A stretch of DNA of 62,156 nt, filler included. It is 12 parts of 12 records of this genome, joined end to end, with 100 filler letters (N's around TTAATTAATTAA, not from the genome) between each part and the next. Parts side by side here need not be neighbours in the genome. Positions count along the whole stretch, not along the records: positions 10,893 to 17,357 come from SRR15195285_5778; 11 more parts are not named here. The stretch is one strand, 5' to 3'. A program made the position numbers and the translations under genes. Shown here piece by piece: positions 4,825 to 54,309 of the stretch. Each line of letters begins with the position of its first letter. Position 1 is the first letter of the stretch. The notes under the pieces were generated by a model. That model was not told the origin of the DNA. It did no database searches and worked only from the letters and a program-made list of their open reading frames with translations.

Positions 4825-4924
4825 NNNNNNNNNNNNNNNNNNNNNNNNNNNNNNNNNNNNNNNNNNNNTTAATTAATTAANNNNNNNNNNNNNNNNNNNN
4901 NNNNNNNNNNNNNNNNNNNNNNNN
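4825..4924. other. Artificial contig spacer
   Basis: N44-TTAATTAATTAA-N44; stop codons in all six frames. Confidence 0.99.
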
Positions 4925-7970: not shown

Positions 7971-10792
7971 TCATAGGAACAGACATGCCATGAAAGCACC
8001 CAGGGCAAGCCCAAGTGGTGACGTACATGCACATGTGGCTTTCGTGGCGCTGGAGGTCTTATCCGGCAAATGTGTGGTGCATCCGAGTTGAACGTAACCT
8101 TCGTAATCGCAGACTGGATCTGAGTTGCACGGGTGAGACGTGCACGCCGGGTTCTCTTTGCAGCAGGCTCCGAAGTCTGAGTATGTCGTCAGGTCACACG
8201 TAGTCTGCCATTCCTGGATTGCCACACGCCCATTGCCATCACAGAAAGATGCTGAAGCGCTCGCATCGTAAATGTGGGCAACTATCGCATTAAAGTCTGC
8301 AGCTGCTGAGCCACACTCTGCATCAGTCACCGCCACCATCGTGCCGTCACCGAATTTATCGCCACAAGTGGCTAGTGCCGTGCAGCACGCAGTTTTGTCC
8401 GCCGCGACTCCACTGATGTCACATGCGGCCCCTGCGCAAAAAGATGCCGAAGCGGTCGTATTGGCAAAGGCACCCGGGTAACAATCCAAATCGGTATAGT
8501 CAGTGCCACACGTGGCTTGTGCGACACAGCAGGTCGTCTTGTCCACTGCAACTCCACTGATGTCACACGTGGCACCTGCACAGGTAGACGCTGAAGCGGT
8601 CACGTCGTACGAGAATCCCTCGCCGCAATCTTCATCGCTGACCGCCGCAGTGCCATCGCCATCGCCATCGGCATCACCGCAAGTGGCCATATGTGTAACC
8701 ACAACATTATCCACGGACCATGGCGGGTCACTAGACAGCTCGCCGAGATACCGGTAATTGTCGTCAAATGCTAGTGGCTCCGCAGATATGAGCAGTTCTG
8801 AATCCAATGGCGGCTCTCCAGCCTCCCACCTGTTGGTTTGTTGCCAACCCTCAATGGGACTGAAACTTATCGTAAAATCTACGATGGTCCAAGGTGTGTC
8901 TGACGTGCCCGCCGGAGAAATGGAGTGTATGGTGACAGCGCAAAAGTCATCTTGTCTTGCGCAAAAGTCACCCAGTGCTGGGATTGCCTCTTCAGCGTTG
9001 CTCTCGAACTCCAGTTCAAACTCGGCCCGCGCCATGCTGCCTGCAGGTATGGTCGATATGCCCATGGCTTCGTATCGTGCATAAGCTCGGACCTGCGTGA
9101 AACCTGGCGGCGGCGGCGGCGATGGCAACAGTGTCGCTCTGCAGCACTCAGCAGCACTGCACCGCTGCTCCTTATATCCGCCATCAATGCTATCATCGCC
9201 ATTCATACCGCATAGAAAGCTCGGGTCGTCCACAAAAGACTCTGTGCCGCTCAGCGAATAGGCTCCCGTTCCGTCTCGGGTTTGGCCCATTCGCGCTCTG
9301 AGCGAGTGAACGCCAGTACCGTCACCCCAGTTGTCCAGATCGCTGCAATCAAAGCGATTGCCCTCTCCGTCGCCGTCAGAGTCAGCGCATGTGCGACTTC
9401 CTCGGATGAGGTCATTGTGGCCACACGTGTTGACATTGGGAATTTCGTGCTCGCAATTGCACGCCACGATTGCAGCGCACAGAGGGTTGGCCATGCACTC
9501 CGAACCGCTCCCGACTGTAACGTACCAAGTCGAACCAGTTTTCCAATACCAATCTCCGTTGCATCCTCCGCAGCTCTGCGCCGCTAGACGGTCACGCGAG
9601 CAGGCATCGTCTGAGTCGCACGCGGCTTCTTGGTCCGCACACGGATCAATATCGCAATCTGGTGAAGGGCATGTCGCCAGCACATCTGCGTACATTGCTT
9701 CGACCGCGGCCAACTCGGAGTTTTCGTCAAGGCCGTGCTGACCTGCGGCCGGCGTCGTACATGAGTCCTTGCAACCCACAGTGAGGGTGTCTGTATACAG
9801 GCTGGAGCATTCGTAGTGCTCCGCGATGGTCGAGGCCGCAGTGATGCACGTCTCCATCTGGCTAAATATGTCGCAATCCGACGCTGTGGCGACACAGCGA
9901 GGCGGATTCAGTCCACAGTCTGCTCGCATCTTCGCCATCTCTGCTGGAGTCTGCGCCGGCCCCTGATTGGACCAGAGCAAACACATGGCACAGCGATCCG
10001 ACGGCGGTGTGTTGTCGCTGTACAGGGCCGCCCAATCGGACGCTCCGCTGCAATCCTCCACGTGCGTGCGAGTGTTGTAAAGACGGTTGTCCGGGGGAAA
10101 GCTGTCTCCTCCTGGGCCGCACTCTAACAATCCAGGTATTGACAGAGCACCAATGTCCATGTCGAAGTCCACGGCGTTCAGCGTGCAGACTGCGCACGCG
10201 TTGTCGTCCGTGCCCGAAACTCCTGTCTGTGCCTCATAACCAATATTGATCGTATCGGAGAGCGAACAGAACCCTCCTTGGCCGACGGGGGGTGCGCACG
10301 AGTTCAGGGCGGCAAAAAAGTCTTCCGAATACCAGGTACAGTCGCTGACTCCAGACGTACCACACGCTGTCGCCACGCAAGCCGAACCTGCGCACCCATC
10401 GTCGCATCGATTTGTTTGAGAGAGCACAGCAGAGTCTAGCGGCGAATTGGAAGGGAGGGAGAGGGACGAGGGAGGCGTCAGTTAGCTAGCCAGCCAAGAA
10501 TCGGTTCTCCTTGCCAGCTTACACGAAGCACTGACGACCGGCTCAACATAACAATACAACTCGCCGCTCTGAGTGCCACTTTGATCTAGGCACGTTGTGC
10601 TGGTTGGGTCGATGCCCGTACCCGGCTGGACACCCCAGGGAGTGCACGCCGCGCCAGATGACGTGGTCGTGAGGCTTGCACACTCAGGAAAGCAGTCTAA
10701 ACTGTCGCCACAAGATTCCAATGTACGTTGTATCAGGTTCGTAATGTCGTCTGCGTTGCAAGCATCAGGCCCTGGCGGCGCCGGCGGTGGCG
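7971..10792 (-). CDS. Large extracellular Cys-rich repeat protein; 5' truncated
   Basis: 818-aa exon plus an upstream exon joined by intron 10522-10436 (T|GTAAG...pyrimidine tract...CTAG). Repeats of the form ATCGD..GDG...VSD.DC...D..ASAS.CAGA.CD.....DK..CC; Pro-rich linkers; short hydrophobic C-terminus. Confidence 0.8.
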
Positions 10793-10892
10793 NNNNNNNN
10801 NNNNNNNNNNNNNNNNNNNNNNNNNNNNNNNNNNNNTTAATTAATTAANNNNNNNNNNNNNNNNNNNNNNNNNNNNNNNNNNNNNNNNNNNN
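10793..10892. other. Artificial contig spacer
   Basis: N44-TTAATTAATTAA-N44. Confidence 0.99.
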
Positions 10893-10995
10893 TTTTCCAG
10901 TACAGACTGCACAAACATTGAACAGGAAAGCACCCCGCCGCTTGCTTTTGCCTGAAATGAGTCTGAAAATCGTACTGGGGCGGAACGGCGCCAGC

Positions 10996-13900
10996 ATGGC
11001 GATGGAGAAGGCGGGCCCGCCTGAGGTGGGGAGGCGGGTGGAGGTCGACGCGCAGCATGTGAGTGCCCCCTCCCCTGTGCACAGCAGCGTAGAACCAGCA
11101 GGGCGGCTGGGCAGGGGAGCGGGGCGGCTGGGCATCGTCGGTGGTAGCCCATGCGTCAGACGCATGTTTGCGGAGCTGATGGCAATAGGACGGCGGCGGC
11201 TCCGCGCCTTCCCTCCGTCCGGTTGTTCCGCCCTGCCACTCCTCAGCTCTCTGTGGGGTCAGATTGCTGCAGTCAATCCATCAGTCAGCCTGAAACCACA
11301 CTGTATGCGAGTGTATGGGCGCATGCCGAGTTTTCTTGGCACCGTTTGACGCTGTAGACAGTACGGGATGGCTCCTGACCGCGATCCCATAGGACGGCTC
11401 CGCACCTTCCCAGCCACCCACATAGCTATTCGAATACTGAGAGGGAGGCGGCGTTTCTCATCGTCTACTGGTGTTTTGGCGCACGCAGGGCGGACAGGTC
11501 ATGTATAAGGGCAGGATCAAAGGGAGAAAAGGCGAGTGGCTCGGGCTGCAGATGGACGAGACGGTCGGCGACTGCGACGGGACCGTCGGCGAGGATCGGT
11601 ATTTCACATGCGAAGATACACAGGGCTTGTTCATCAAGTGGGAATCTGGAAGGGTAGTAGCAACGCCGGACAGAGCTGTCATCCCTCAGCCCGTGCTGGA
11701 ACACATGCTGATGCTGTTCGAGGCGTGCGACGCTAGCCGAACCGGTGGCCTCGATGTCGGCGAGCTGCTGCAGGCAATGCAACTGCTCGGCCAGGGAGTG
11801 ACGAAGAAAGATGCCCAGGCGATTTTCAAGCGAATCGTTAACGACGCAGACCGCGTGTCGTCGCTTAAAACTGGGATCGAATTCGATGAATTCAGGCGAG
11901 TCATGGAGGAGCAGTGGTTGGGTGTTGACCTGGACGCAGTTGTGCGGTCAATCCAAGAAGAAGAACAAGCAGAGCTGGAAAAGCAGGAGGCAGCGAGGCT
12001 GGCAGCGCTAGAGCAGGACTTGGCGATTGACGTGATGGGAGTGACTGTCGATCTGAACTACTTTGGCGCGGGGACCAACGTGGGGCTCCTCGTCGTGTAC
12101 AGCTGCATGGCTCTTGCGGTGACAGGGCAGGTGTATTTGCACGTGCCAGAAGACATGCTGACTTTCTTCATGGTCGCCGTGCTCGGCGGCAGCGCCGCAC
12201 TCTTTGGCATCGGCGGTGTTGCCATCAAAACTCAAAATTGGCCTCTTGTGAAGCTGTATTCAGTTTTGCTGTTCTTCGCGGCGGGGATGCAGTTCGCAGT
12301 CTGCATTGCGTTCAAGGTAGGGCTGTTGCAAATGAGCACCTCCGTCGTAGCTGCTGTCATGGATAGAGAGTGTGGCACCTGTGTCGGGGCTGAGCGCTGC
12401 GCCACCGTGAGTAGCAGCGTTCTTCCGGCACAAGCTGACGCTGAACTAGGTGATCAGCCTTGGTACTGCTGCTGCGCACACAACGAATGTCGGGGCACAG
12501 AGCTGGCAATCCAAGCACAAGCAACCTGTGAGGACAGCTGTGCGCTGGCAGACCTGACAGACAGTGACACTGCTTCCCGGGCCAGCTGCATCGCCCAAGG
12601 TGATGCGGCTGGACCACCGGCGAGCACATGTGTTTACCTTGGGGCTACTGACGCAGTTTGCAACCGAGGATCATCCTGCCCACAGGATGATCCGACCCAC
12701 CCAACACTCCATGACGAATGTTACACGACGGCGGGAGTGGCTATCGGTGGGGATCTTCCATCGTGCCCAGCGATGACCGGGCTAGATTCTGCGGCTGCGA
12801 GCGTAACCTGCTTGGCAGCTGCAGGTTGCGAGTATACGCCTGGAACAGCCAAGACTTGCACGCAGAATGAGGAGGTGTCCTGCGGGGATCACGCGCAAAG
12901 CGAGTCGGCTTGTACTAGTACGGGCGTTTGCGTCTACACTCCGGCGGTATATGGCAGCCACGTTGCTGATCTGTCAGCCGAGGAGGTGGAAACGATGCAG
13001 ATGTGTCAAACTCGGGACGAGTACCTAGACTTCGCCCGGGTGCACGCTTATCCTATGTTGTCTGTGCTTGGCGACGATCAATGTTTTGACCGCATCGACG
13101 ACCCGAACGAAGCCAGCGGGTATGCCGGTAAGCTGCTCTGCCACTGTACTGCAAACGCTCAGCGCCGCTCACGACAGCTGCCCTGTAAACGTCGATGCCG
13201 TTGTCTGCTGACAGGGCTCGCGGGATGCCTGGAGTCTTACCAATCGAGCATGCAAGTGTGGTACTTGGTCATTCAAATGCTGATGCTTCCGATTGTACTG
13301 CTAGCAGCTTACGTTGGCTGGGTGCTTCCCGATATATACATCCAAAAAGTTACGCAGTCCCAGGCCCAGGGAGTAGACAGTTTTTTATCAACCTTAAATT
13401 TCTCGAACCCCATTGACGAGGAAGCTGGAAACGGCGACGGGACTAAGGAGGGCAAGGACGAAGTCCTATCAGAGGCGTCCACGATTGCAGAGGCTTTGAT
13501 ACAGGCGAAGCAGGTGTGTGGAAACCTATTGAATCGCCCCCATTTGCATCAGCAGGGTTGATGGTTGATGTGAAGACTTCATTACCGTCAACTGCAGACT
13601 AACGGACTGTGTTCTTATGACCAGGCAAAAAAGGACAGGGTCAGGCAAAAGGAGCTACAGACGCTCGGTCCATACTTGTCAGGTCAGTATAAGCCGACGA
13701 ATGCAGACATAGCGAAGGCCACGGCTAGTGTATCTAGTGGGGCAAGAGTAGCTGGCACAGTCCCTGGGTCGCAAGCGGAAAAGGCTGGCGTGCGTAGAGG
13801 TTGGCTGTTGCACAGCATTAATAGCAAGGTTGTGAGCAGCCAGCGTCCCGAGAAGGTGGTTTCGATGTTGCGTGACGCGGGGCGGCCGCTGTTGGTAGGC

Positions 13901-14140
13901 TTTCATCAGCCATACCAACGTTCAAACACCGGGCCTATAGAGATCGCCTTCAAAGAACCTGGGGAATTAGGCCTTCAATTCGAAGGCACAACTAGAATCG
14001 GTCAAGATGCAGACGATACTCCGGTCAAGCGTGCTAATCCATTGGCGGCTGAATTGACTAGATCCAGCCAGGCTAAAGACGATTCTCCGATCAAAGTGGC
14101 CAACCCATTGATGAATCAATCAGTGGATAATGAGGAGTAG
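10996..14140 (+). CDS. Membrane protein: CAP-Gly + EF-hand + tetraspanin-like 4TM with large Cys-rich loop + PDZ; 4 exons
   Basis: Exons 10996-11058, 11489-13127, 13215-13513, 13625-14140. Splicing rebuilds CAP-Gly VGRRVEVDAQH|GGQVMYKG...GEWLGLQMDETVGDCDGTVGEDRYF. EF loop DASRTGGLDVGEL; four hydrophobic helices; PDZ-like ARVAGTVPGSQAEKAGVRRGWLLHSIN...RPLLVGF. Confidence 0.85.
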
Positions 14141-14206
14141 TACGCCTGGTGGTGAGCACCAATGTAGTACGGCTGAATTCAATCCAGAAATGCGATGCTA
14201 ACTAAA

Positions 14207-17028
14207 CTAAAACATTTCCGCCTCAGCCATCGACCTGATTCGTGCAACACGCTACCACTTCAGCAAGAGGAGAGAGGAGGAACGTAGAACATCTGGTCGC
14301 GCTTACCGCAACACCATTCTGCAGGCTTCGTCAATGTCCATAGCTGAAGTGTCAACTTTGAGGTCTGGTGCTGGTGGCTCTTCGTAAGGATCATCAATAC
14401 CAGTGAAGCCTTTGATTTCGCCAGCGCGTGCCTTCTTGTATAGACCTTTTGGGTCACGTTCCTCCTGCAGCGATGGTTTACAGCGCATTAGATGCAAGCA
14501 AGACATATGGAACAACACGCAGTAAAACTCTGCCAGCGTATATCTTCAGCGCCTATCTTCTAGAAACGAGCGAGCACGCCAACACATGGCGTGGTGCGTA
14601 CCGCGACCGAGAGCGGCACATGCACGTGGCATTCAATAAATGGCAACCCAGCGGCAGTATGGAGCTTCCGTGCCGCCTCACGGTCTTTCCGGTACGGTGA
14701 GATGAATGACACTAGGCAGATCATCCCAGCGTCAGCAAAAAGCTTGCCCACCCTGCACAGACCAACGGTTGCAAATGAAAGGTAATCTATGGTGCAACCA
14801 ACCCAGCAAGGCGTTTTCATCATAATTGTACCCCAAAAGACCATGGGCAGAATGGTCTCACTCTGCTATTCTTCGAATGTTCTCCGTACGGTCGGCAATG
14901 GAAAATCCTAGGCCGGCATTCAGTCCAAGACGCACGTTGTCACCATCAAGTCGGTACGCAGGTCGAGACCTAGCAAGCAATTTAGCTTCCAACGCCGCAG
15001 CCAGTGTGCTTTTTCCACTCGCAGAAAGTCCCGTGAGCCACACAGTGCCACCACGCTGCCGCAGACATGTCTGTACACAAACCATACCACACCCAAGCAG
15101 AAGTTAGTACAGAGCTACCATCAAGGCCTTAGCTAGTCGAACAACTCACTCAACGCGCAAAGGCATGGCAGCAACATTCATTACCTGCCGATCCTGGCGG
15201 CTAGAAATCGACTCATGCGCGGTGAGGTTGCTTCCCGAGCTTACTTCGGCGCCCCCAGCGGCAGCTACTTTAGACAAGTCTTCGACAGCAGCTTTCTCAG
15301 CTGCAAGGGCCTGCTCGAAGTAGCCATCTGGTACTGCAGTGACTGAGTTGTGACTCCTTTCATATTCCACCACCTCTGAAGCGACCAAGCCATACACGAT
15401 GGCAATGTAAGCTATGTGGCTGGGGACATAAGCGAGCGCCACATTTGGTGTACGAGCAAATCCAAAAGTCAATATGCACACTGACCATACAGGGGGCGGT
15501 GATGAAACTTTGCGCTCTGTGCACCACCCCCATTCCACGGTGGCAACTGCATGCTCACGTCTGCGTTGATCCGTTTGTTAAGAGCCCTGGTGTCCAGCTT
15601 GAGCGCGAGTGGCTCAGCCACCTGCTCGATGGCAACATCAGGAAAACATCACGAAGGCGCTTCGTCCCAACACAATTACAAGGCACAGCTTTCCTACCTC
15701 TGCGATCCATTTGAGCAATGCCACATTGCCTTCGACGCCATCCGCAGGTTGCCCGATTACAAACTCCGCGTGCCTGCCAAGCCCCATGGCAGGTTACTCA
15801 ACGCAAGACGCATCCCCAATCGCATACATGATTGCAATGGTGCAAGAACAATGAATGCAGCTCAGTGATGTGAGACCTCACTCGAGTCCGGACGCGTAGA
15901 AACGCCCAGGCTTCGGACACGGGACTTCAATGCACGAAACGGTGAAACCTGAGTGAACAATTGGCTCGTGCAGCTGAATGGTCGCTATCGGCCGCCCCCC
16001 GATCATACCTGGCGCCATCGCAAGTGAAAACCATCGCTCTGGGCGCAGCCACGCATAGTTTGGCAACAGTGCTGCTTATCTTACTTTCCACTCCAAGCAC
16101 GCCAAACTGCGAAAGCAGCGCAGCACAGATCTCTCTATACTGCGCCACAGACGAGCAGCGGAAACAAATGTGATCGAGCTCATATCCTCTCGCAAGCACG
16201 TCCAGGCCGTTGGTGGCCAGCGAAGCGACCAGAGCGTCGATGAACCCGCAGTAATTGCCGATCAAGTGCTCCAAAAGTGGCAGCTCGTGGCTGCGCGTTC
16301 CGAAACCACTACGCGTCGCTCCTAGCGGAGCCCTAGTCGGTGATGTGGTGGTGCTCCACGTCCACTGTGGGTCGTGCACAAATGGGCCGTACAGGAGTAG
16401 CGATGCGGCTTCCTGTGGCAGCTGCGACTCAATCTCGTAGTTTGACGAGCCTTGCAGTCGATTGAACTTCGACTCCCATCGGGAGAAGTGGGAACAGGCG
16501 AGGAGGTGACCTTCAAAGCGGTCCGCGGAGGCAGTGCAGCTGTATAGGGGCCGGTAGACTACCTTGAAGTCTTTCACCTGTGTCACACCATCCTCACGTC
16601 AGTGTTGGGGGGTACAGCAGGCGGTGTGCTGGTAATCGTAGCTCGTGTCTTCCTTGACGTCAGCAGACTGGCTAAAAGAGATGCAGGAGTTTTGTTCAAG
16701 CCAGTATTTGGGCTGTACAGCAGCGAGGTGCAAAGAGCTGACCTCGTGGTCCCAAGCATGGCCGAGGACCTGGTAGTACTTGCCCTTCAGCTCCCACACC
16801 TCAACGGTGGACGCTGCAGCTGGCTGCTGCTTGATTCGTACCTGCTCCACACACGCAATGCATGTTACCCTTGAGCAGCTGTCTCAAAACAGTACAGAAT
16901 TACAGTGTAAAAAGTCATCAGCTTGGTCAAGATCTTTCTGTACACGGAGTAGGTACGCAAGACAGTGCGGCGACTGCACCCAGCGCGGCTGCACCTGCAG
17001 CACCAGCGAAGGCTGCTGCTGCTGCCAT
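14207..17028 (-). CDS. cysC: Fusion protein: hydrophobic N-terminus + DUF1653-like + YecM-type VOC domain + adenylyl-sulfate (APS) kinase; 11 exons
   Basis: Exons 17028-16957, 16841-16743, 16577-16085, 16008-15882, 15773-15698, 15621-15486, 15375-15185, 15070-14862, 14752-14602, 14464-14307, 14234-14207; all GT-AG and in phase. APS kinase: [68 protein letters not shown]. YecM-like: [46 protein letters not shown]. Confidence 0.85.
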
Positions 17029-17357: not shown

Positions 17358-17457
17358 NNNNNNNNNNNNNNNNNNNNNNNNNNNNNNNNNNNNNNNNNNN
17401 NTTAATTAATTAANNNNNNNNNNNNNNNNNNNNNNNNNNNNNNNNNNNNNNNNNNNN
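17358..17457. other. Artificial contig spacer
   Basis: N44-TTAATTAATTAA-N44. Confidence 0.99.
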
Positions 17458-21838: not shown

Positions 21839-24390
21839 ATGAACGACCGCATGGCCGAACTGCAGGCGGACTGGACGCCGGGGGAGTGGCCGGACGATGC
21901 AGCCGGCACTGGTGCGAGAGAGCAGCATGATGAGCCAGGCTGCTATGGCCGTGTGACCGCCTGATCTTGGCTTGACCGTAAACGCTTGCTGGTGCTGGTG
22001 CGCTTGCTGGTGCTGGTGCTGTCGCAGGCGCGGAGTTCAGCAACCCTGCCTTTGTCGAAGGCTCCGCATTCGACGACGCAGAGCTTGCTGGGCCCCAGGT
22101 TTCGAGCGATGAGGTACGCCTGAGCGCTCGCCCCCGACGTCTCGCCCCCGACGCTAGAACAGCGCGGCCTCGGGCTCTTTCAAACATCCTTCATTCAAAC
22201 AACGCTCACACCTGCGCGCGATGAACTACGCTGTTAGGACACGACCGACCACATCAGCGTGGTCGTGACCGTATCACTGGATCGTGGCGACGAATCGCAC
22301 ACGCTGTTCGTTTCACAGCACAGCAAAGTGCAAGAACTGCGCGCCATGATCGGGCGCTGCGCCGGGGTGCACGCCGACGGCTTTCAATTGAAAGCGCTTG
22401 ATGTGGACGACTGGGGGATCGACTTCAGCAACGAGTTCGAGTCACTGACATCTCTAGGGGTGCACAACAAAATGCAGCTGATAGCCACGGGTGCGACACT
22501 TTCCACGAGCTCGCCACCTTCCACGCCGCCGCGCATCGGCGGAGGTCACGACGATATCGAGAACGCGGGCTACACGCGAGTTAGTTCGACCGGGAGTACG
22601 GGTGTGAACTTTCCGGGTGACTGTACACCGCCGTCGCGGCAGCGCACTGGTGGCGTCGGAGTGAGCACTGGAGTAGGCACTAGCACTGGCGGCTCTTGGG
22701 TGTCCAACTGGAACAAGAAGGCAGACTGCGGATTCGTCGGGCTGTCGAACCAGGGCGCCACGTGCTACCTGAACTCGCTGCTCCAGTCGCTCTTCATGAC
22801 CTACGAGCTACGGAAGGGCCTATACCAGTGGGAATATGACGACCAAAAGTACGAGGCATTGGAAGAATGCGTCCCTGCACAGCTACAGCGGCTGTTCGTT
22901 AACCTGCAGACATCGGAAGAGCGAGCGGTCGAGACAACAGCACTAACCGCAGCCTTTGGCTGGACAGACGCGGATGCGTTCGAGCAGCAGGACGTAAACG
23001 AGCTGCTCGTCATCTTGTACGACGCGCTGGAGCAAAAGTTCAAGGGGACGCCGCAGGCAGGCCTCATCAAAGCATTGTACTCGGGCGAGTACGACGACTG
23101 CGTTATATGCAAGTGCTGCGGAAACAAAGCAGGTAATCAAGCTGTACGAAGATTGCGCTCGAATCACTCCATAGAAGCTAACGTGTGCGTGCCGGCGCTT
23201 AACTTGGTGCACAGGTGCCGGTGCTAGTGGGTTTACGTCTCTAGACTTAGCTATCAGCGAGTTTGGTTCTACCGAGAAAATCGGCTCGATCCAAGAGGGC
23301 CTGAGGCAATATTTCAAGAGTGAAATTCTCGACGGGGACAACCAGTACCACTGCGAGAAATGTGAGGAAGACGGTCGCGGCCCAAAGCAGGACGCGGAGA
23401 AAGGTCTGAAGCTATCAAAGGTGCCGTACATCTTGTCGATTGGTCTCAAGCGTTTTGACTACGACTGGGAGCGCGACTGTCGGATCAAGGTTGATGATGA
23501 GGTCATCTTCCCGGACGTGTTGGACATGGCAGAGTTTCTGGACATGGAACCCGCTCCAGCACCAGAGCCAGAGTCGGCGCCCGCTCTGCAGCCTGAGACG
23601 AGCTCTAGTGGCGAGGTTGTAGAGGTTGGTGCGGGGGTCGAGGAGGGCACGCCGCCTGTCGAGCACTGTGGCTTCGGTACGCGTGGATTTTCATCTGCCT
23701 ACACGCCCCATCGTTGGCGTTGATCCGGATTGATCTGTCCACCACTGTGCCTTGGATGTGTGCCATTGTGCAGGGAAAGACGGTGCAGAGATCCGGGCAG
23801 CGGACGTAGAAACAGCTAGAGCGAACGGCAAGCTTGAGTACGAGCTCTTTGCTGTGCTGATACACTCCGGTTCAGCCATCGGCGGCCACTACTACTGCTA
23901 CTGCCGCGACGGTGAGGGTTCCTGGTATGAGTTCAACGACGCGTCGATCTCTGAGATAGATGAAGAGGAGGTTGGCAAAGCTTATGGCGGGACGACAACT
24001 AATCGTCGTGGTGGGTATAGCTGGTCGTATGCGTCCAGTGCGTCAGCTTACATGCTGATGTACCGACGCAAGGATGACGCCCTAAATATCAACGCAGTCG
24101 AGAAGGACGACCTGCCAGCTCGGCTGTCAGAGGAAATTGCGGCCGCCGCAGCCAAGGAGGCTGAAGCCAGGGCAGAAGAAGCTGCTGAAAATGAGCGCAG
24201 GCGAACATTGCTAGAGTACAATAAGGCGTACAGCGACAACCGTGCTGCTGATGTCGACATTCCGAAAACATCGACGTTGTCTGAGACGGTAACACTGCTT
24301 CGAGCGGAGCTGGTACGAGCCTAATTGTACTCGCATAGTCCTTGGAGCTGATATATTTGACAGAAAAGCTGGTTGTGTGCACAGGCCGTG
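21839..24390 (+). CDS. Ubiquitin-specific protease (USP47/USP7-like C19) with N-terminal ubiquitin-like domain; 3' truncated
   Basis: Exons 21839-21911, 22028-22113, 22238-23132, 23215-23676, 23774-24312, then the contig ends. Cys box GFVGLSNQGATCYLNSLLQSL, FEQQDVNE, LDGDNQYHCEKC, LKRFDYD; His box HSGSAIGGHYY, WYEFND. The first exons are less certain. Confidence 0.9.
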
Positions 24391-24490
24391 NNNNNNNNNN
24401 NNNNNNNNNNNNNNNNNNNNNNNNNNNNNNNNNNTTAATTAATTAANNNNNNNNNNNNNNNNNNNNNNNNNNNNNNNNNNNNNNNNNNNN
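24391..24490. other. Artificial contig spacer
   Basis: N44-TTAATTAATTAA-N44. Confidence 0.99.
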
Positions 24491-28830: not shown

Positions 28831-28930
28831 NNNNNNNNNNNNNNNNNNNNNNNNNNNNNNNNNNNNNNNNNNNNTTAATTAATTAANNNNNNNNNNNNNN
28901 NNNNNNNNNNNNNNNNNNNNNNNNNNNNNN
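28831..28930. other. Artificial contig spacer
   Basis: N44-TTAATTAATTAA-N44. Confidence 0.99.
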
Positions 28931-29221: not shown

Positions 29222-29453
29222 ATCCGCGGGTGACCTGGCTGGTGGCTGCTGCAGCTGAGTGCTTCAACGCCGCCGCCGCGCCGGCCGGGCGCGTCGCGCG
29301 CGTGCGCGCGCGGCAGCGCGTGCTCGCGTGCGCGCAGCGCGTGCTGCAGTCGGCTCCGTCGATGTAACCGGTCGCTAGGTGCGATGTGGTTCAGCTGAGC
29401 TAGCCGCAGTGCGGCGGAGTCGATCCATCCCGGGCCATCCATCCGCGTCCGCC

Positions 29454-31682
29454 ATGGAGCAGCAGGGGTTCGGAGGGATGGTGGCCGAAGCGGCGGGCTA
29501 CAGAAGCCGACGAAGCCGCAAAAATGGCGGGGCTGCGTCCACGCGGGGATCGGTGCTGGGCGGTGATCATGCGGACGCTGAAACGCGCTTCGACATCGAT
29601 AGCCCGTGGCTGCACGGGAAAGATGTGGAGAAGCTGCGCGCCATCCGCGAGCAGCTGTCGTCGAGCACCCGCATCACGACCGAGATCAAGACGTCGCTAG
29701 CCGAGTTTGACCACAAGCTTACTGGCTTGGAGAAGTTGGTGAAGCCAGTGCAGGACGAAACTCGGATGCTCAAGAACGCACACACGAACATCCAGCGCTC
29801 GCTCTCGAGCATGGAGTCCGTTGCTGCTCACTTCCGCACGGCTGCAGATGTCTCCACCACGCTCCGTGGCCAGGGTCTCCGCGGCAGCTCAACGCAGCAC
29901 AGTGGAGCGACGTACAACAAGTATCTGCGGGATGTAGACAGGGTCAAGGCCTCGATGGACTACTTCCGCGGGTCTGCCGCGTCGTTCAAGAGCGCACCCG
30001 AGGCGGCACGTGAACTCGATGCCCTGTACTCACACGCGATGGAGGAGTGCCTGCAGGAATACACGAACATACTGCAGGCCGAGAGCAGCCGTCCGACAGA
30101 CTTGCGCGAGGACACGCTCACAGGAGACACGAGTGGCCTGGTCGTGATCCGGCATGACGCGCTAGTGCACCTGCAGGCGCTGTGTCCACGGCTACAATCG
30201 AGTGGCACCGTCGAGCATGAACAGCTCTACGCCCGAGTGCGTGGCGATTGGATTGTCGCGACGTTGGCAACGTCAGTGGAAGGCATGATCGGCAGCGCCG
30301 AGCTGCTTACCAGGGCAGCACAGCGATACCAACGCGGGAGCCATCCGATGATTGGCTATATGGACAGCTGTCTGCGCTTGCTGCAAGCCGAGCAGGCCGT
30401 CGTCGAGGCACTGTTTGGAGAAGCGTCGGCATCCGAGCGGGTGTTCGGCAAAACTTGCGAGCCGGCAATGCAGCAGTTGGCATACCAGGCGAGGGAAATG
30501 ATCGAGCTTGGCTATGGAGATTCAGCGAAAGCCAAGCCTGCTGCAGTTGCCGACCAGCTTTTTGTTGCGTTGGACCTGTTCGAGCACTCGAGCCGACAGG
30601 CCGCGGACTTCGAGACCGTGCTCCGTAGCTGCGATCGTGGCTCTAGAGAGTCGTGTATGAGCTTGGTATCCAAGGCAAAACGCGGCTTTCATGGCAGCGC
30701 AGAGCATTCGTTTCGCGGTTTCTTTGCGCTCCTCCAGGATCAGGCAGCATGGGATCGAAGTCCTGCCGAGGGCGCTACTGTCCACGAGCTCACGACGACG
30801 ACGCTGAGCTTTGCGCGTCGGCTGCTCGGCTACACTGACATCCTGGAAGGCTCAGACCTCAGCCCACTCCTGCTAGCGGTGGTCGGCGGTGATGTGAGAT
30901 CCGCCAGCGTGCCTGGTGCACTGCGCTCGGCGCTTCAGATAGGCGCGCATTATATGCTGCAGCATTCCACAAGAGGGTACAAAAGTGGCGGTGGGCGCGA
31001 GGAACTGTCTGGCCTGTTTGCGCTGAACAATCTCGTCTATATTGCACGCAGCGTGCGGGCAGAGCCGCAGCTGGGCCGTCTTGTCGGCGAGGAGTTCATG
31101 CTGGCTCTGAAACAAAATAGGCGTAGACTTGTAAAGGAGTTCACTAACGCACGATGGGGAAACATTGCAGAGATCCTGAGAGGTAGCGAGCAGAGCGAGG
31201 GCGGAGCGGAGCCGCTGCTGGGGAAGAACCAGGCAGCGATGAAAAAGGAACTCAAATCGAGATTCAAAGCGATCAATGCGATGTTCACTCGAGGTGAGTG
31301 CCAAGTTTCTCGGTGCATCCACCTGCAGCGGTAGCAGCAGGATTTCTTCGTTCGGACCAAGGAATGTGTGCGCTTGGGTACTAATTATGCTTTCTGTCGC
31401 TGATTGCCAATCTGCACAGCATCGGCTACAGCGGCTGGTGTGGGCCCAGCGCGTGTTTCAGGAGATCGCTACACAATACCCGAGAGGGAGCTACGGGTGG
31501 AGCTGTGCAAAGCAGCGGTAGACCGGGTGCTTCCTGCCTACACTGCTTTCTTTGAGCGTTTCAGCACGTTCGGCTTCTCCAACCCTGCAAAGCACGTGAA
31601 GTTCGAGCCGAAGGAGATCGAAGCAGCGTTGCGAAACTACTACCAGACACCACAAGATCAGGCGCCGCGCCTGACTGTATAA
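29454..31682 (+). CDS. EXO70: Exocyst complex subunit Exo70
   Basis: L..FDHKL..LE..VKP...T..LK.AH.NI N-terminus; GATVHELT; LFALNNLVYI; KELKSRFKAIN; YTIPERELRVEL...VLPAYTAFFERF...NPAKHVKF. One intron from 31294, acceptor 31419 or 31461. Confidence 0.9.
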
Positions 31683-32791: not shown

Positions 32792-32891
32792 NNNNNNNNN
32801 NNNNNNNNNNNNNNNNNNNNNNNNNNNNNNNNNNNTTAATTAATTAANNNNNNNNNNNNNNNNNNNNNNNNNNNNNNNNNNNNNNNNNNNN
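32792..32891. other. Artificial contig spacer
   Basis: N44-TTAATTAATTAA-N44. Confidence 0.99.
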
Positions 32892-33061
32892 AGAATTATC
32901 GTACAAAAGTTGGCCGGATTCGCGAGCGCGTGCATGTACCGTAGCGAGCGTCGGTCTCGCGCGCGCGCGTGCCCGCGCGGTATCTCTAGCTAGCTAGAGA
33001 GACCTCTGGAGTGTATCCTACCGCGCTGAGAGGCACGCGCAGCTCACAAACACCCGCCAGC

Positions 33062-36000
33062 ATGTCGGATCAGGAAGAAGCGGCCTCTGGAGGCGCGCCG
33101 AGCAGCGTGCGTGTGTCTAATCTACGCAGCTTCGCTGCTGCTGCAGACGCTGCTGCTGCTGCTGCTGCTAGTGCTGGGAAAGCCGAGGCTGGCAGCGGCT
33201 CGGGCTCGGAGACGGAGGAGCTGGACTCGGACACGGAAGCGAAGATGCAGGCGACGTGGGTTGCTCAGCGGAGACCGACCGAGACTAAGCGGAAGCGGAA
33301 GCGCGTCGAGATCGTCTCGCCGGCGATGCAGGGAGCGCAGCAGGCGACGCAGCAGGCTGCTGCTGAGTCACACAGCGCAGCTCCAGGTGCGATCGGCGGT
33401 GCACGGCCATCTAGGAACGGGTGCAATGCAGAGGCTGCACCGCAGGCCCAGCCAGCTTTCACCGAACGTGCCATCGGCGGGATCAGCATCGCGTTCCCAG
33501 CCGGTCTCAAACCACACGCTCCGCAGATGGCCGTGATGGCCAAGGTGGTCACGGCACTGCGGCTGAAGAAACACGCCCTGCTTGAGGCGCCCACAGGCAC
33601 CGGGAAATCGCTGGCGCTTCTTTCAGCAGCGCTGGCGTGGCAATCTGCCGAGGCTAAGAAGCTCCACGCCGCAGCCGGTGGCGACATGAGCACCTCGCGT
33701 CAGGCTACGGCGCTGCGTGAGAAGGCGGTGTTGTTGAATCGGGCAGCAGCTAGCGACCGGACGGATGGTACCACAACTGGCATGCGTGGTGTTGAAGAGG
33801 CCACTGTAGCCGCTGTAGGTGGTGGTGACCATGCTGACGCACCACCAGCGCCACCCAGAATTTTCGTGTGCTCACGGACACATTCTCAGATAGCTCAGCT
33901 GCTCACGGAGCTCAAGCGGACGCCGTACGAGCCTGAGATGACCGTGTTGGGCTCACGCTCTCGGTACTGCTGCAACGCTGAGGTACAAAACAGCGAAAAC
34001 AGCGTTGATGCCATGTGTGCCCAGGCAGTAAAAGCTCGGACGTGCAGCTTTCATGCCAAGGCGGATCTGCTGGCGTACGAGCTGAGTAAGCTCCGGGTGT
34101 GGGACATGAGAGACATCGAGGATCTGAGAGCTGAGGATGGAGGCGGCGGAGGTTGCCCTTTTTTCGCTACGCGACAGCTTGCAGAGGGCGCGTCACTGAT
34201 CTTTGCGCCGTACAACTACATCTTCGACGCTGGGGTCAGGGAAGCTCTGCAGATCGACGTGAAAGGCGCAGCCATCATAATCGACGAAGGTCCGAACAAA
34301 GCTGTGTAGTTTCAGGTGTGAGCTTCACGTCTGACATACATTTGGCTGTGTGATAGGCCATAACTTGGAGGATGTGTGTCGCGAGTCGGCGAGTTTCGAT
34401 ATTACTGCGACGGCACTGTCTACATGCAACCGGGAAATCGAGGCTATGAGCAAGAGGTCCGTTCCTACAAACAGTTCTCTCTGCGTTGTTCCAGGCTGAT
34501 TTGGCAACCCGGTCTGAGCCGAGATGCTTCGTCCAGGTTCCCGCAGCTGGAGTACGTTGCAGTGTTTGTTCGACGTTTTAGCGAGTGGTTCGAGCGTGTG
34601 ACCACAGAAGTTGGCTCACGGCACGGTGGGGAGCGGATACAAACTCCAGGAGTTTCTGTTGCTGAATTGAGTGCGGCGATTGGTTTGCCGCCGACACTGC
34701 CGTACGAGCGGCTCTGCAAGCTAGGGTTTGAGGCGAGTTGCAATGTGCAGGAGATCCTGACAGAGCAAGGCGCGGCTGGCTGGGGCGCAGCCAGTCTCCT
34801 AGCGGCTGAGAAGCTGTGCTGGCGGTGCATGGATATGCTGACTGCAAAACCCGAAGACTACCGGATTGTTGTGCGGTCCGGAGATCGAGGGTCATTCAGC
34901 AGCTTTGGTCGTGGCGGTCGCGGTCGCGGTCGTGGTGGGTTTGGGAACGGTGCTGCACGACGTGGCGGTGGTGGTAGTGGAGGCAAGGAGGCTTCGTTCC
35001 ATATCTGGTGTCTGAACTCGGCTGTTTCCTTTGTCCCCGTTGCTGAGCAAGCACGCTGCGTCATCATCACCTCGGGAACCCTCGCACCAATGGCGGTGAG
35101 ATCAAGCAAACGGACGTGCCATCGTTTTCATGAACTTCTTGCAAATCAAAACAAAACGTCATTGTTGTGGCAGGGGATGCAAGGTGAGCTGGGCGCGAGC
35201 TTTCCACTGAAACTAGAAGCGCAGCATGTCATCCCATCGCGGCAGCTGCATGTCGAAGCGTTAGCAGAGCTCGGCGAAGTAGTTTATAAGAACTATTCCG
35301 GTCACCGGGGTGCGGCGTTCAACGACCAGCTTGGCGGTGAGCCTGGCACAACATCTTGCGCGTTGGAAACAAGTGGAAACCTGAAAACAAGTTTTCTATG
35401 TGCAATTGATAGGGATACTACTCTCGCGATTGCCTCATATACCAAATGGTTCTCTGTGTTTTTTCTCCTCCTATTCGTTAATGGAGAGGGCAGTAGAACG
35501 TTGGCAAGGTGTGCACCATGGTGCACATATCTGAAGCATGTTCCTGCTGATGACCCGTGTACTCAAGTGGTCGTGTCGATTTGGTAGAGACCACGATTTG
35601 GGACAAGCTATCAGAAGTAAAGCATGTCGTACAGGAAGGTAGGGGCGCTGACAGCTTTGCTGATACCATCGAAGAGTATTACAACGCCGTCCCAAGTGGG
35701 GCTTTGCTGCTTGCAGTGTGCCGTGGTAAGGTCAGCGAGGGCCTGGATTTCAAAGCAGAAAAGGCGCGTGCAGTTTTTGTAGTGGGGATACCTTTTCCGT
35801 CCTACCAGGTGCGTAATGACCTATGCAGGCCCATGCGAATCTTTACAGTCAATGCATCGGCGGGCCCACTGATAGACAAGGTGTGCATTTGTAGGACACG
35901 AAGGTCAAGCTCAAGCAGGAATTCAATGACAGTGCGCAGGCGCGCGTGAAACGTGGAGGGGCAGTTTCTCCGGATGGTTTGGTGCTCCCTGGAGGCAGTT

Positions 36001-36943: not shown

Positions 36944-37043
36944 NNNNNNNNNNNNNNNNNNNNNNNNNNNNNNNNNNNNNNNNNNNNTTAATTAATTAAN
37001 NNNNNNNNNNNNNNNNNNNNNNNNNNNNNNNNNNNNNNNNNNN
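36944..37043. other. Artificial contig spacer
   Basis: N44-TTAATTAATTAA-N44. Confidence 0.99.
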
Positions 37044-41893: not shown

Positions 41894-41993
41894 NNNNNNN
41901 NNNNNNNNNNNNNNNNNNNNNNNNNNNNNNNNNNNNNTTAATTAATTAANNNNNNNNNNNNNNNNNNNNNNNNNNNNNNNNNNNNNNNNNNNN
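41894..41993. other. Artificial contig spacer
   Basis: N44-TTAATTAATTAA-N44. Confidence 0.99.
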
Positions 41994-42482: not shown

Positions 42483-42897
42483 GCGCGCAAGAACAAACAA
42501 TTCACGTATCTACCCATTTTGGAACCGTTCGGAGGGTCTGTCCCGAGGGATCTACCGTGCAGTTGGCGTAATCGGAGGTTTTACGGACCGTCTGGCGGAA
42601 AAACAGAATGGAAAGTCGTCGAGGAACTCCTATCTATACAGCTGTAGGAGCAAGGAGCAGCTGGTGGTCGTGGTGGTGGAGGTCCTGGTCCTGCTCCTGC
42701 TCTTCTTCCTCCTCCCTTAGGGGGTTTGGATTTTGTTTTCCCTATTAGGATCGCCCACCATCCGGTCGTACAAGGAGCGTGCAGGGGGGGTGGGGGGAGG
42801 GGTGCTGGGCCAGGGGCTGGGTCAGTGCTTGTTGTTGGTCGCTTCTGGGGTGGGAGGCGCCGACCCTACAGCAAGCGCCGGCGGCAGCAGCGCGGCG

Positions 42898-44313
42898 ATG
42901 GGGGCAGCGGATGTGCTCGGCAGCCCGCGGCGATGCCTGGACATGGAGCGGGCCGTAGGTGACGAGCGGATTGGGAGGACGATCCTCACGTGCCTGCTCG
43001 ACGCGCCGCAGCCGGACTTCGTGGCGTCCGTTGCCGCGCCGCAGAGGAAGCTTCTCGGCAACAAGCTCGCGATGCGGAAGGGCGGCGGCGGCGCAGGCGG
43101 CGGCGGCGAGAGCAGCCCCATCTTCACGCCGACCACATCGCCGACGCTGAGCGCGTCATCGGCCGACGTCGGCTGTGACGAAGAGTGCTACCTCCTCGCC
43201 GACTTCGAGCTGGACGGCCTCGAGGAGTTGGATGCAACGCCTGCCGAGTCCGACTTTGAAGCGGCACTGCAGCTCGAGCCCTTGAACGGCAAGGACGGTG
43301 CACAGCTCAAGATGACCGAAGATAGCGCACAGCTGATCGTCGACGTGTACGAGGGTCTCGTCGGGGGCGGGTCGATCGCGAGCATCAGTACCGAGTCGGT
43401 GTCCGGCACGTACGTCGTGCGCGGTCCCGACGGCATGAGCCTAGCGATCTTCAAGCCGTGTGACGAGGAGGCTGGCACGAACGGTGGCGACATGACGGCA
43501 CTGTCGGCGTCGGTGCAACGCGGCTGCGCTCCGGGCGAAGGCGCCAAGCGGGAGTACCTGGCCTACATGGTAGACCAGCAGTCACCGGCTGGCTTCCGTG
43601 CAGGAGTTCCGGCAACCGCTCTCGTACGTCTGCGGCACCCCACGATGTTCGCCGGGCTGCCGAAGGAGGGATCACTCATGCGCTTCGTGAACAACCGTGG
43701 TGGTGCGGAAGACTTCGGGCCTTCCTGTTTCTCGGAGGCAAACGTGCACCGCCTGGCCCTCTTCGATCTGCGTACGCTCAATCTCGATCGCCACGGCGGG
43801 AACATCCTCGTCGACTCGACTACAGGCGACCTCGTCCCGATCGACCACGGGTGTGCCTTCCCCACCGAACTCGGCGAGCCGTGGCTGGACTGGCGACTGT
43901 GGCGACAGGCGGAGACGGAGCTGTCTTCTGAGACGCGTACCTTCATCCAGGGTCTCGATCCCCTCGCGGCAGCCTCGCTGTCCGCGGAACTTGGCCTGCC
44001 AGACGGCGTGTGGCGTACCGTCGCTGTAATGACGCTGCTGATCCAGGCCTGCCTCGGGGGAGGCCAGATGACTCTGCGCCAGGTGGCAGAGCTGACCATG
44101 AACCGTTGGTCCGAAGGCACAAAGGACGCCGAGGTTAGCTTCGTTGAGAAGCTCGGAACCGACTTGGTGGCTGCAGATCGCGCAGCCAAAGCTGTCGCAT
44201 CGGAGGAGTGGCCCTGGCCGGGCAACAACGGGCAGTCGACTTTTGTTGAACGCTGCCGACTGGCCATTGAGGGTCGGCGGCAGGTTGCAGCATTGACGCA
44301 GGCGGTGGATTGA
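42898..44313 (+). CDS. Type II phosphatidylinositol 4-kinase (PI4K-gamma-like)
   Basis: SGTY, AIFKPCDEE, GEGAKREYLAY, GVPAT, GSLMRFV, FDLRTLNLDRHGGNIL, LVPIDHG. Intronless; start at ATG 42898 or 42943. Confidence 0.9.
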   Translation: MGAADVLGSPRRCLDMERAVGDERIGRTILTCLLDAPQPDFVASVAAPQRKLLGNKLAMRKGGGGAGGGGESSPIFTPTTSPTLSASSADVGCDEECYLLADFELDGLEELDATPAESDFEAALQLEPLNGKDGAQLKMTEDSAQLIVDVYEGLVGGGSIASISTESVSGTYVVRGPDGMSLAIFKPCDEEAGTNGGDMTALSASVQRGCAPGEGAKREYLAYMVDQQSPAGFRAGVPATALVRLRHPTMFAGLPKEGSLMRFVNNRGGAEDFGPSCFSEANVHRLALFDLRTLNLDRHGGNILVDSTTGDLVPIDHGCAFPTELGEPWLDWRLWRQAETELSSETRTFIQGLDPLAAASLSAELGLPDGVWRTVAVMTLLIQACLGGGQMTLRQVAELTMNRWSEGTKDAEVSFVEKLGTDLVAADRAAKAVASEEWPWPGNNGQSTFVERCRLAIEGRRQVAALTQAVD

Positions 44314-46668: not shown

Positions 46669-46713
46669 CCTTCACCGCAGCGCACAGGCTGGGTCAGAAT
46701 TCAATCCACAGGC

Positions 46714-46813
46714 NNNNNNNNNNNNNNNNNNNNNNNNNNNNNNNNNNNNNNNNNNNNTTAATTAATTAANNNNNNNNNNNNNNNNNNNNNNNNNNNNNNN
46801 NNNNNNNNNNNNN
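46714..46813. other. Artificial contig spacer
   Basis: N44-TTAATTAATTAA-N44. Confidence 0.99.
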
Positions 46814-50381: not shown

Positions 50382-50481
50382 NNNNNNNNNNNNNNNNNNN
50401 NNNNNNNNNNNNNNNNNNNNNNNNNTTAATTAATTAANNNNNNNNNNNNNNNNNNNNNNNNNNNNNNNNNNNNNNNNNNNN
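50382..50481. other. Artificial contig spacer
   Basis: N44-TTAATTAATTAA-N44. Confidence 0.99.
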
Positions 50482-54209: not shown

Positions 54210-54309
54210 NNNNNNNNNNNNNNNNNNNNNNNNNNNNNNNNNNNNNNNNNNNNTTAATTAATTAANNNNNNNNNNNNNNNNNNNNNNNNNNNNNNNNNNN
54301 NNNNNNNNN
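54210..54309. other. Artificial contig spacer
   Basis: N44-TTAATTAATTAA-N44. Confidence 0.99.

Follow-up and report, generated by a model that had tools for sequence, protein, structure and literature searches.

A three-exon gene of a marine planktonic eukaryote predicted to encode a four-transmembrane protein with CAP-Gly, EF-hand and PDZ domains

CAP-Gly domains are known, to our knowledge, only from soluble or lipid-anchored cytoskeletal regulators: CLIP-170, p150Glued, TBCB, TBCE and CYLD are soluble, and CLIPR-59 is lipid-anchored. Tetraspanins carry 4 to 8 cysteines in the roughly 70 to 130 amino acids (aa) of their second extracellular loop (EC2), and the PDZ protein syntenin binds the tail of one of them, CD63, in trans. 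STIM1 is a single-pass protein with a lumenal EF-hand, and its SxIP motif contacts microtubule plus ends through EB1. The parts of PMC6895871 on which we draw describe tetraspanins as having a CCG motif in EC2 and three short intracellular regions. Here we describe a gene at 10996-14140, on the plus strand of a 62,156-nucleotide (nt) stretch of DNA (the window), the predicted product of which combines modules of these kinds. The reading that we favor, with a probability of roughly 0.6, is that it encodes an 867-aa polytopic membrane protein carrying a CAP-Gly domain, an EF-hand pair, four transmembrane (TM) segments and a PDZ domain in one three-exon gene.

From the N terminus, the product has a CAP-Gly domain (with GDCDG), an EF-hand pair, a short charged helix, three closely spaced TM segments, a 290-aa loop of disulfide type and TM4; there follow the signature AAYVGWVLPDIY, an N-P-hydrophobic-acidic motif, the PDZ domain and, at the C terminus, two further copies of the motif. 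Read from the sequence, this is a new combination of known modules around an unassigned membrane core. An initial annotation of this DNA had listed a CAP-Gly domain with GDCDG, an EF-hand, four TM segments, a loop with CCC, a PDZ domain and a duplicated tail motif, all of which lie where it had placed them, and the link between TM2 and TM3 that it quoted is present in the sequence. It had also failed to recognize the architecture from any described protein; among the papers listed by full-text literature searches, likewise, none concerned a CAP-Gly domain fused to a four-TM or tetraspanin core.

The gene has three exons and two introns, opens with an ATG at 10996 and closes with a stop codon ending at 14140.

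10996..11058 (plus strand): exon 1, 21 codons, with the start codon and the first CAP-Gly strand; read from the sequence
11059..11488 (plus strand): intron 1, GTGAGT..CAG, phase 0; read from the sequence
11489..13513 (plus strand): exon 2, 675 codons (P0001); from translation
13514..13624 (plus strand): intron 2, GT..AG, phase 0, 111 nt; from an RNA contig
13625..14140 (plus strand): exon 3, 171 codons plus the stop codon (P0002), with the PDZ domain and an acidic tail; from translation

Exon 2 holds the remainder of the CAP-Gly domain, the EF-hand pair, the charged helix, TM1 to TM3, the Cys-rich loop, TM4 and the proximal tail. The gene starts about 100 nt from the left edge of its host contig (10893-17357), and an alternative in-frame ATG lies at 10957, upstream of the start of exon 1. 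Read-through of exon 1 into intron 1 meets a stop at 11349. In the relatives P0005 to P0008, an in-frame Q (CAG) stands four residues ahead of the conserved V-x-Y-K/V-G, matching the window, and the upstream peptide of P0008 is similar to the exon 1 peptide. The public protein model P0003 omits both exon 1, with its first CAP-Gly strand, and the PDZ exon, running through intron 2 to a stop at 13561; truncated in this way at both ends, it leaves the architecture invisible in catalogues.

In this marine planktonic eukaryote, 10996-14140 holds a single nuclear gene, which is expressed and has three exons. Conservation of its open reading frame (ORF) across relatives, at 52-80% identity, together with near-identical pieces in RNA libraries, places the gene beyond chance. 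Four RNA-library runs from three studies were compared with 10900-14300. In one contig (X3 record 9), 13513 is followed directly by 13625, in frame and without mismatches, the shorter side being 91 letters, and RNA contigs at ≥99% identity match parts of exon 2. Support for the single chain proposed by the initial annotation comes from this contig, which joins the exon of TM4 and the tail to the exon of the PDZ domain, and from relatives that keep the domain order in single ORFs. One of these, the distant L002 (31% identity), has one ORF with a CAP-Gly domain, EF-hands, four TM segments and a short tail; exon 2 is colinear with this ORF over residues 6-645, and exons 1 and 2, once joined, align to its CAP-Gly domain without gaps. 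X1 contigs begin at 11493 and stop at 13512, beside the predicted splice sites, a weak hint only.

Other RNA results weigh against this reading. No contig from the four runs falls within 10900-11230, leaving exon 1 and intron 1 without RNA cover, and the support for the junction of exons 1 and 2 is conservation alone. Three junctions had been anticipated; the gene has two introns, and RNA joins the flanks of intron 2 and has nothing to say on intron 1. One contig (X4 record 16) spans 13563-13778 unspliced across the acceptor of intron 2. Intron retention, pre-mRNA or DNA in the library are possible explanations of that contig, and a PDZ-less product ending 16 codons into intron 2, as in P0003, may also be made. 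Might two or three neighboring genes (CAP-Gly/EF, four-TM and PDZ) have been misread as one? The truncated P0003 model, the contig left unspliced at intron 2 and the uncovered exon 1 are what such an artefact of gene modelling has in its favor. Against it, the CAP-Gly domain, EF-hands, TM1 to TM4 and tail share one 675-codon exon here and one ORF in L002, TM4 and the PDZ domain lie within one ORF in the relative L004, and an RNA contig joins exon 2 in frame to exon 3. Given the single-ORF relatives and the exon 2/3 RNA join, a fusion artefact is very unlikely and largely refuted.

Inside intron 1, at 11233-11287, pieces of 22-37 nt from several metatranscriptome contigs match with mismatches and have long loose ends on both sides; they look like a short repeat that other loci or other organisms also carry.

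The N-terminal part of the protein contains the following.

11567..11581 (plus strand): GDCDG, standing at the CAP-Gly GKNDG position; from residue alignments to solved CAP-Gly domains
11699..11905 (plus strand): EF-hand pair; Pfam EF-hand_7, E of 6.6e-6, P0001 residues 71-139
11729-11764 (plus strand): EF loop 1, DASRTGGLDVGE, a canonical 12-residue loop; read from the translation

Exon 2 alone matches the CAP-Gly family (PF01302) at 51.7 bits against a cut-off of 26.5 (E of 8.6e-14); the match starts at position 13 of 65 in the profile, and exon 1 supplies the first strand. The best PDB matches are the TBCB-like F53F4.3, CLIP-170 and dynactin p150 (E down to 1e-8), to whose GKNDG the GDCDG of the window protein aligns exactly, other core hydrophobic and glycine positions being retained. 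In L002, the CAP-Gly domain scores 62 bits over profile positions 1-63. It counts against an ordinary CAP-Gly domain that GDCDG is invariant in six of six close relatives (P0003-P0008) and that the distant L002 has GDNDG; Lys is changed to Asp family-wide, and Asn to Cys in the clade of the window. Those portions of PMC3806363 that we used state that GKNDG is “almost always” conserved in tubulin-binding CAP-Gly domains, that its Asn hydrogen-bonds the EE[Y/F] tail, and that a CAP-Gly domain with a variant loop still binds, this last being shown there only with Gly at position 3. With neither the Lys nor the Asn of GKNDG retained, a link of this CAP-Gly domain to microtubules through tubulin or EB tails is doubtful, and the coupling to microtubules that the initial annotation proposed is not supported. 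The conserved change in the ligand loop suggests a groove that is retained with a different preference.

We place slightly below even odds the alternative that this CAP-Gly domain binds no tubulin or EB tails and recognizes another C-terminal or proline-rich peptide, perhaps from a partner specific to the lineage or from its own acidic tail with the NP motifs, which it might hold in an autoinhibitory clamp. It draws on the replacement of GKNDG by GDCDG or GDNDG across the family, a change that is conserved and not random, set beside the near-constant GKNDG of tubulin binders and the bond of its Asn to EE[Y/F] (PMC3806363, in part). What tells against it is that outside the ligand loop the CAP-Gly core has been kept, hydrophobic and glycine positions among the rest.

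The EF-hand pair is less securely scored, and this too counts against our reading: PF13499 reaches 26.8 bits in the window protein against a cut-off of 30. L002 passes that cut-off (43.7 bits) and matches other EF models at 44-50 bits, with two good EF-hands; a precomputed PF13499 match is present in four of the six exon 2 homologues, and PDB matches of the pair include troponin C and centrin. The canonical Ca2+-binding EF loop follows the consensus D-x-[DNS]-x-[DNST]-G-x-[ILV]-[DSTN]-x-x-E, which EF loop 1 fits at positions 1, 3, 5, 6, 8, 9 and 12. EF loop 2 is degenerate: it lacks the Asp of position 1 and contains an insertion. Calcium regulation by way of the canonical loop, which is conserved in relatives, is plausible.

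The membrane core was delimited by a Kyte-Doolittle hydropathy scan, in which four segments stand out as hydrophobic, spanning approximately residues 215-237, 243-267, 274-305 and 607-634.

~12077-12139 (plus strand): TM1, from hydropathy, followed by an outer turn of 5-6 residues, HVPED
~12155-12226 (plus strand): TM2, from hydropathy, followed by a 6-residue inner turn, KTQNWP
~12245-12313 (plus strand): TM3, from hydropathy, with a hydrophobic extension to 12358
12359..13255 (plus strand): Cys-rich extracytosolic loop, about 290-299 aa with 29 Cys; its central part is variable
12461-12475 (plus strand): WYCCC, within the Cys-rich loop
13256..13324 (plus strand): TM4, from hydropathy, followed by the family signature AAYVGWVLPDIY (13304-13339)

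The block from TM1 to TM3 (12077..12313) shows the strongest conservation in the family. Since CAP-Gly is a module of the cytosol and 29 cysteines call for oxidising conditions, we infer that both ends face the cytosol (N-in, four TM, C-in) and that the large loop lies outside the cell or in the lumen; the hydropathy agrees with the four-TM topology that had been suggested. The cytosolic ends would then be about 210 aa (N-terminal) and about 230 aa (C-terminal), both with folded domains; the one short intracellular region is the TM2-TM3 turn. Within the loop, the conserved motifs are DRECGTC (after TM3), WYCCCAxNxC and, ahead of TM4, C-x2-YQS, with a GC ahead of TM4 from 13223 onward. The loop had been described earlier as roughly 280 aa long with CCC and GC; both features are there, and the length by count is 290 aa. 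No N-glycosylation sequon occurs in these 290 aa, and no Pfam family matches the loop at E ≤ 1. In the signature AAYVGWVLPDIY, Y, G, W and P are invariant in alignment A2 (16 sequences).

AlphaFold, a check that the initial annotation had recommended, lent no support: both models, of the TM region and of the PDZ exon, were of very low confidence, with predicted local distance difference test (pLDDT) values of 37.4 and 34.7. The TM-region model, built from a 7-sequence alignment, is unusable and gives the four-TM reading no structural backing, which we count against it. A Foldseek comparison of this model with the PDB returned none at E ≤ 0.001; its matches, all at E ≥ 4 (SemiSWEET, STING and others), are meaningless.

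The core is tetraspanin-like in topology, and homology with tetraspanins is a lead only and unproven. Of the likeness drawn by the initial annotation, then, the topology stands, and the homology is not demonstrated: the TM1-3 part of the window protein reaches 8.1 bits (E of 2.6) with PF00335 against a cut-off of 32.1, the loop has CCC and not CCG, and a TM1-3 profile (A5) run against PDB sequences gave no matches at E ≤ 10. Added to these points against a tetraspanin core, the exhaustive search with the TM region returned no canonical tetraspanin among its 26 matches. At the site of CCG, every family member covering it has CCC-A or CCC-Y. PF00335 is nevertheless the commonest weak Pfam match, being found for 5 of 10 TM1-3 parts, and the highest score in the family, 14.6 bits (E of 0.026), comes from a match in register with TM1-3 of the profile. 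Among Atlas language-model neighbors, where scores below 0.9 are leads only, tetraspanin clusters take ranks 2 and 3 for the window TM part (0.75) and all of the top three named clusters for the L002 TM part (0.80-0.81).

Does the core, then, share its descent with PF00335, as a true but highly divergent tetraspanin whose EC2 has expanded and whose ends have acquired long cytosolic domains? We regard this tentatively, somewhat below an even chance. In its favor is the arrangement, with four TM segments, a tiny TM2-TM3 turn and a large Cys-rich TM3-TM4 loop, which has neighboring cysteines near its beginning and, some 10 residues ahead of TM4, a conserved Cys; so are the weak PF00335 matches, the best of them in register, and the tetraspanin neighbors in the Atlas. 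TM1 has a conserved Asn and TM3 a conserved Gln, which may be comparable to the polar TM residues of tetraspanins and would point the same way. All of these scores, however, lie far under significance, those of the Atlas being below 0.9, and the PF00335 match of P0023 is out of register. All members seen have CCC-A/Y in place of CCG, the first extracellular loop (EC1) is about 6 residues long and EC2 about 290 aa, and the PDB sequences yielded nothing. The tails, of about 210 and 230 aa, are likewise at odds with the three short intracellular regions described in the part of PMC6895871 used here.

A little short of evens, in our judgment, is the alternative that the core is an independent four-TM family that converged on the tetraspanin topology and founded a new family with known cytosolic modules. 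No significant link to a known TM family emerged from Pfam, the PDB or the exhaustive sequence search. The family has invariant motifs of its own in DRECGTC, WYCCC and AAYVGWVLPDIY, none of which we know as a tetraspanin motif, and one member has an equally weak CD20-like match (E of 0.057). Chance hydrophobic matches, however, should scatter, and the weak matches cluster on tetraspanins across members and by two methods.

On the C-terminal side, exon 2 ends with the proximal tail motif, and exon 3 carries the PDZ domain and the distal motifs.

13400..13417 (plus strand): FSNPID, the proximal tail motif (N-P-hydrophobic-acidic); from alignment A2
13664-13684 (plus strand): TLGPYLSG, a candidate carboxylate-binding loop before the PDZ core
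13733..13891 (plus strand): PDZ core; Pfam match, profile positions 24-76 of 81
13961-13978 (plus strand): GELGLQ, a candidate carboxylate-binding loop after the PDZ core
14012-14044 and 14078-14110 (plus strand): DDxPxKxANPL, two copies; from the sequence

The assignment of exon 3 to the PDZ fold draws first on its homologues, five of six of which match PF00595 (best E of 6.1e-6), and on the exon 3 family profile, which matches DegQ (3.9e-5), the PDZ domain of SNX27 (6.7e-5) and also DegP in the PDB. Counted against it are the scores of exon 3 itself, 24.1 against a cut-off of 27 for PDZ_6 (PF17820; E of 3e-5) and 22.3 against 23.2 for PDZ (PF00595); the AlphaFold model of the exon from a single sequence, which at pLDDT 34.7 is unusable and offers no structural support; and a patchy distribution, the domain being absent from the syntenic L001 and the distant L002. 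In L004 (30% identity), one ORF runs from TM2 through TM4 and the tail motif to a PDZ domain that passes the cut-off (24.6 bits against 23.2); beyond it come a stretch rich in Lys and the tail motif once more. The two PDZ versions in the family align weakly (hhalign E of 0.024), and both have GW in place of the GD that is usual in the domain.

Directly after the PDZ core, GPIEIxFxxPGELGLQ (P0002 residues ~103-118) is among the best-conserved parts of exon 3. This segment looks like the first strand and GLGF loop of a PDZ domain placed after the core, and it could be a circular permutation, the remnant of a second PDZ domain or an HtrA-type closing strand. A 40-aa Pfam scan of the PIEIxFxxPGELGLQ region found no family.

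The N-P-hydrophobic-acidic motif lies 20-35 residues past TM4 and recurs at the very C terminus, and several distant members end just past it. In alignment A2, N81 of FSNPID is invariant and P82 is present in at least 90% of the sequences. The last DDxPxKxANPL copy is found in six of six aligned sequences and the first in three (the window protein and its two closest relatives). Motifs of this NP-hydrophobic-acidic type may be akin to endocytic NPF-acidic signals.

The relatives found indicate a small, lineage-restricted family among marine planktonic eukaryotes. In a word-indexed search of 5.8 billion proteins, exon 2 had 6 relatives at 53-100% identity, all partial models, and exon 3 had 5 at 52-98%. 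When the TM region was run by HMMER exhaustively against 1.84 billion cluster representatives, 26 proteins matched at E ≤ 0.001, all of them family fragments. When the PDZ exon was searched against longer proteins, none of 1041 candidates passed, and this route led to no full-length homologue. A pattern scan of metagenome contigs gave 243 matches that reduced to five loci; one of these (L005), which is bacterial and fits the TM4 pattern by chance, was dropped. L002 also has a faint match to PF25578 (E of 0.12).

Viral kinship was considered and rejected: the top Atlas neighbor of the window TM part is a Nucleocytoviricota cluster (0.78), and a search of viral contigs with the TM1-3 and TM4 alignments found no relative.

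L001 is the syntenic orthologue. As in the window, an APS (adenylyl-sulfate) kinase gene lies downstream on the other strand; the same intron follows “...RQAKQ”, and the last exon begins alike. At 1849-2091 of L001, the last exon retains its beginning and, at the C terminus, the NPL motif, and the PDZ core is absent; it follows that the PDZ domain was lost or gained within closely related species. The kinase of the window is the neighbor of the membrane-protein gene.

14303-15103 (minus strand): APS kinase, three exon-like ORF pieces, PF01583 at 51.8-87.2 bits; tail-to-tail with the membrane-protein gene

The whole window is eukaryotic DNA with long ORFs and introns of spliceosomal type; its GC content, taken per 2 kb, ranges over 0.47-0.67. 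It consists of 12 contigs (~4-8 kb each) chained by eleven identical artificial linkers, N44-TTAATTAATTAA-N44, a six-frame stop spacer. The linkers being artificial, genes on either side of one are not true neighbors, and genes close to one may be cut.

4825-4924, 10793-10892, 17358-17457, 24391-24490, 28831-28930, 32792-32891: linkers
36944-37043, 41894-41993, 46714-46813, 50382-50481, 54210-54309: linkers, continued

In the contig preceding that of the membrane protein, 7971-10481 (minus strand) is an 836-codon Cys-rich ORF with repeated units like ASASxCxGAxCDISGVAxDKTxCC and no Pfam family at E ≤ 1e-5; its product is a second Cys-rich protein, unrelated to the four-TM protein. A 2567-codon frame at 54451-62154 (minus strand) is open to the end of the window and has fibronectin type III and PKD domains; the product is probably a giant surface protein. 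The remaining contigs carry ordinary eukaryotic housekeeping genes, and the features recognized in the window include these.

70-1425: papain-family protease with an I29 propeptide
22238-23224: UCH deubiquitinase
29379-31331: Exo70
32990-34306: DEAD_2 helicase
42721-44310: PI3/PI4-kinase
44539-46671: choline/ethanolamine kinase

How such a protein might work can be put as a model, to which, taken as a whole, we give about one chance in three, every functional step being conjectural. The protein would be a membrane scaffold whose Cys-rich ectodomain engages a ligand or matrix and whose two cytosolic ends recruit partners. On the N-terminal side, the CAP-Gly groove would bind a C-terminal peptide, which may or may not be a tubulin or EB tail; since GKNDG has lost its Lys and Asn, the choice between these and another ligand is left uncertain. 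The EF-hand, with one Ca2+ loop beside the CAP-Gly domain, would place this binding under Ca2+ control. On the C-terminal side, the partners, bound by the PDZ domain and by the NP-hydrophobic-acidic motifs, would be proteins for sorting or scaffolding. The role of extracellular sensor suggested by the initial annotation is pure inference.

A bolder version makes this the first integral-membrane CAP-Gly family, a tetraspanin-derived surface receptor whose disulfide-rich ectodomain is linked, within one polypeptide, to a Ca2+-gated CAP-Gly clamp (for tubulin, EB or lineage-specific tails), a PDZ domain and NP-motif sorting signals; we consider it unlikely. If it were true, marine picoplankton would couple the surface or lumen to a minimal microtubule cytoskeleton by a single protein. 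More generally, a CAP-Gly-headed polytopic protein conserved down to ~30% identity would represent a new membrane-cytoskeleton or membrane-trafficking coupling, and if its core were a tetraspanin, it would be a rare one with large folded cytosolic domains and an EC2 expanded threefold. Since domain shuffling is common in protists and function is here read from sequence alone, the surprise is limited.

Among described systems, the CAP-Gly proteins (CLIP-170, p150Glued, TBCB, TBCE, CLIPR-59 and CYLD) share with the window protein a CAP-Gly domain, which here lies well above the Pfam cut-off; the window protein differs in being an integral four-TM protein with GDCDG for GKNDG. STIM1 is alike in being a membrane protein that joins a Ca2+-binding EF-hand to a module of the microtubule-tip type; the window protein differs in crossing the membrane four times and in having a CAP-Gly domain and not SxIP, and the two have no sequence relation beyond the EF-hand. 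Tetraspanins (PF00335; CD81, CD9 and CD63) are alike in their four TM segments, in the predicted N-in/C-in topology, in the very short TM2-TM3 turn, in the large TM3-TM4 loop with adjacent cysteines and a Cys shortly ahead of TM4, and in the weak in-register Pfam matches and language-model neighbors. The window protein differs from them in giving no significant match, in having CCC and not CCG, in its EC1 of ~6 residues and in its EC2 of ~290 aa with 29 Cys. The tails of tetraspanins are short, according to the part of PMC6895871 at hand, whereas the ends of the window protein, of ~210 and ~230 aa, hold folded domains. With the pair formed by CD63 and syntenin, finally, it shares a four-TM scaffold with a PDZ domain on the cytosolic C-terminal side, and here that PDZ domain is part of the same chain.

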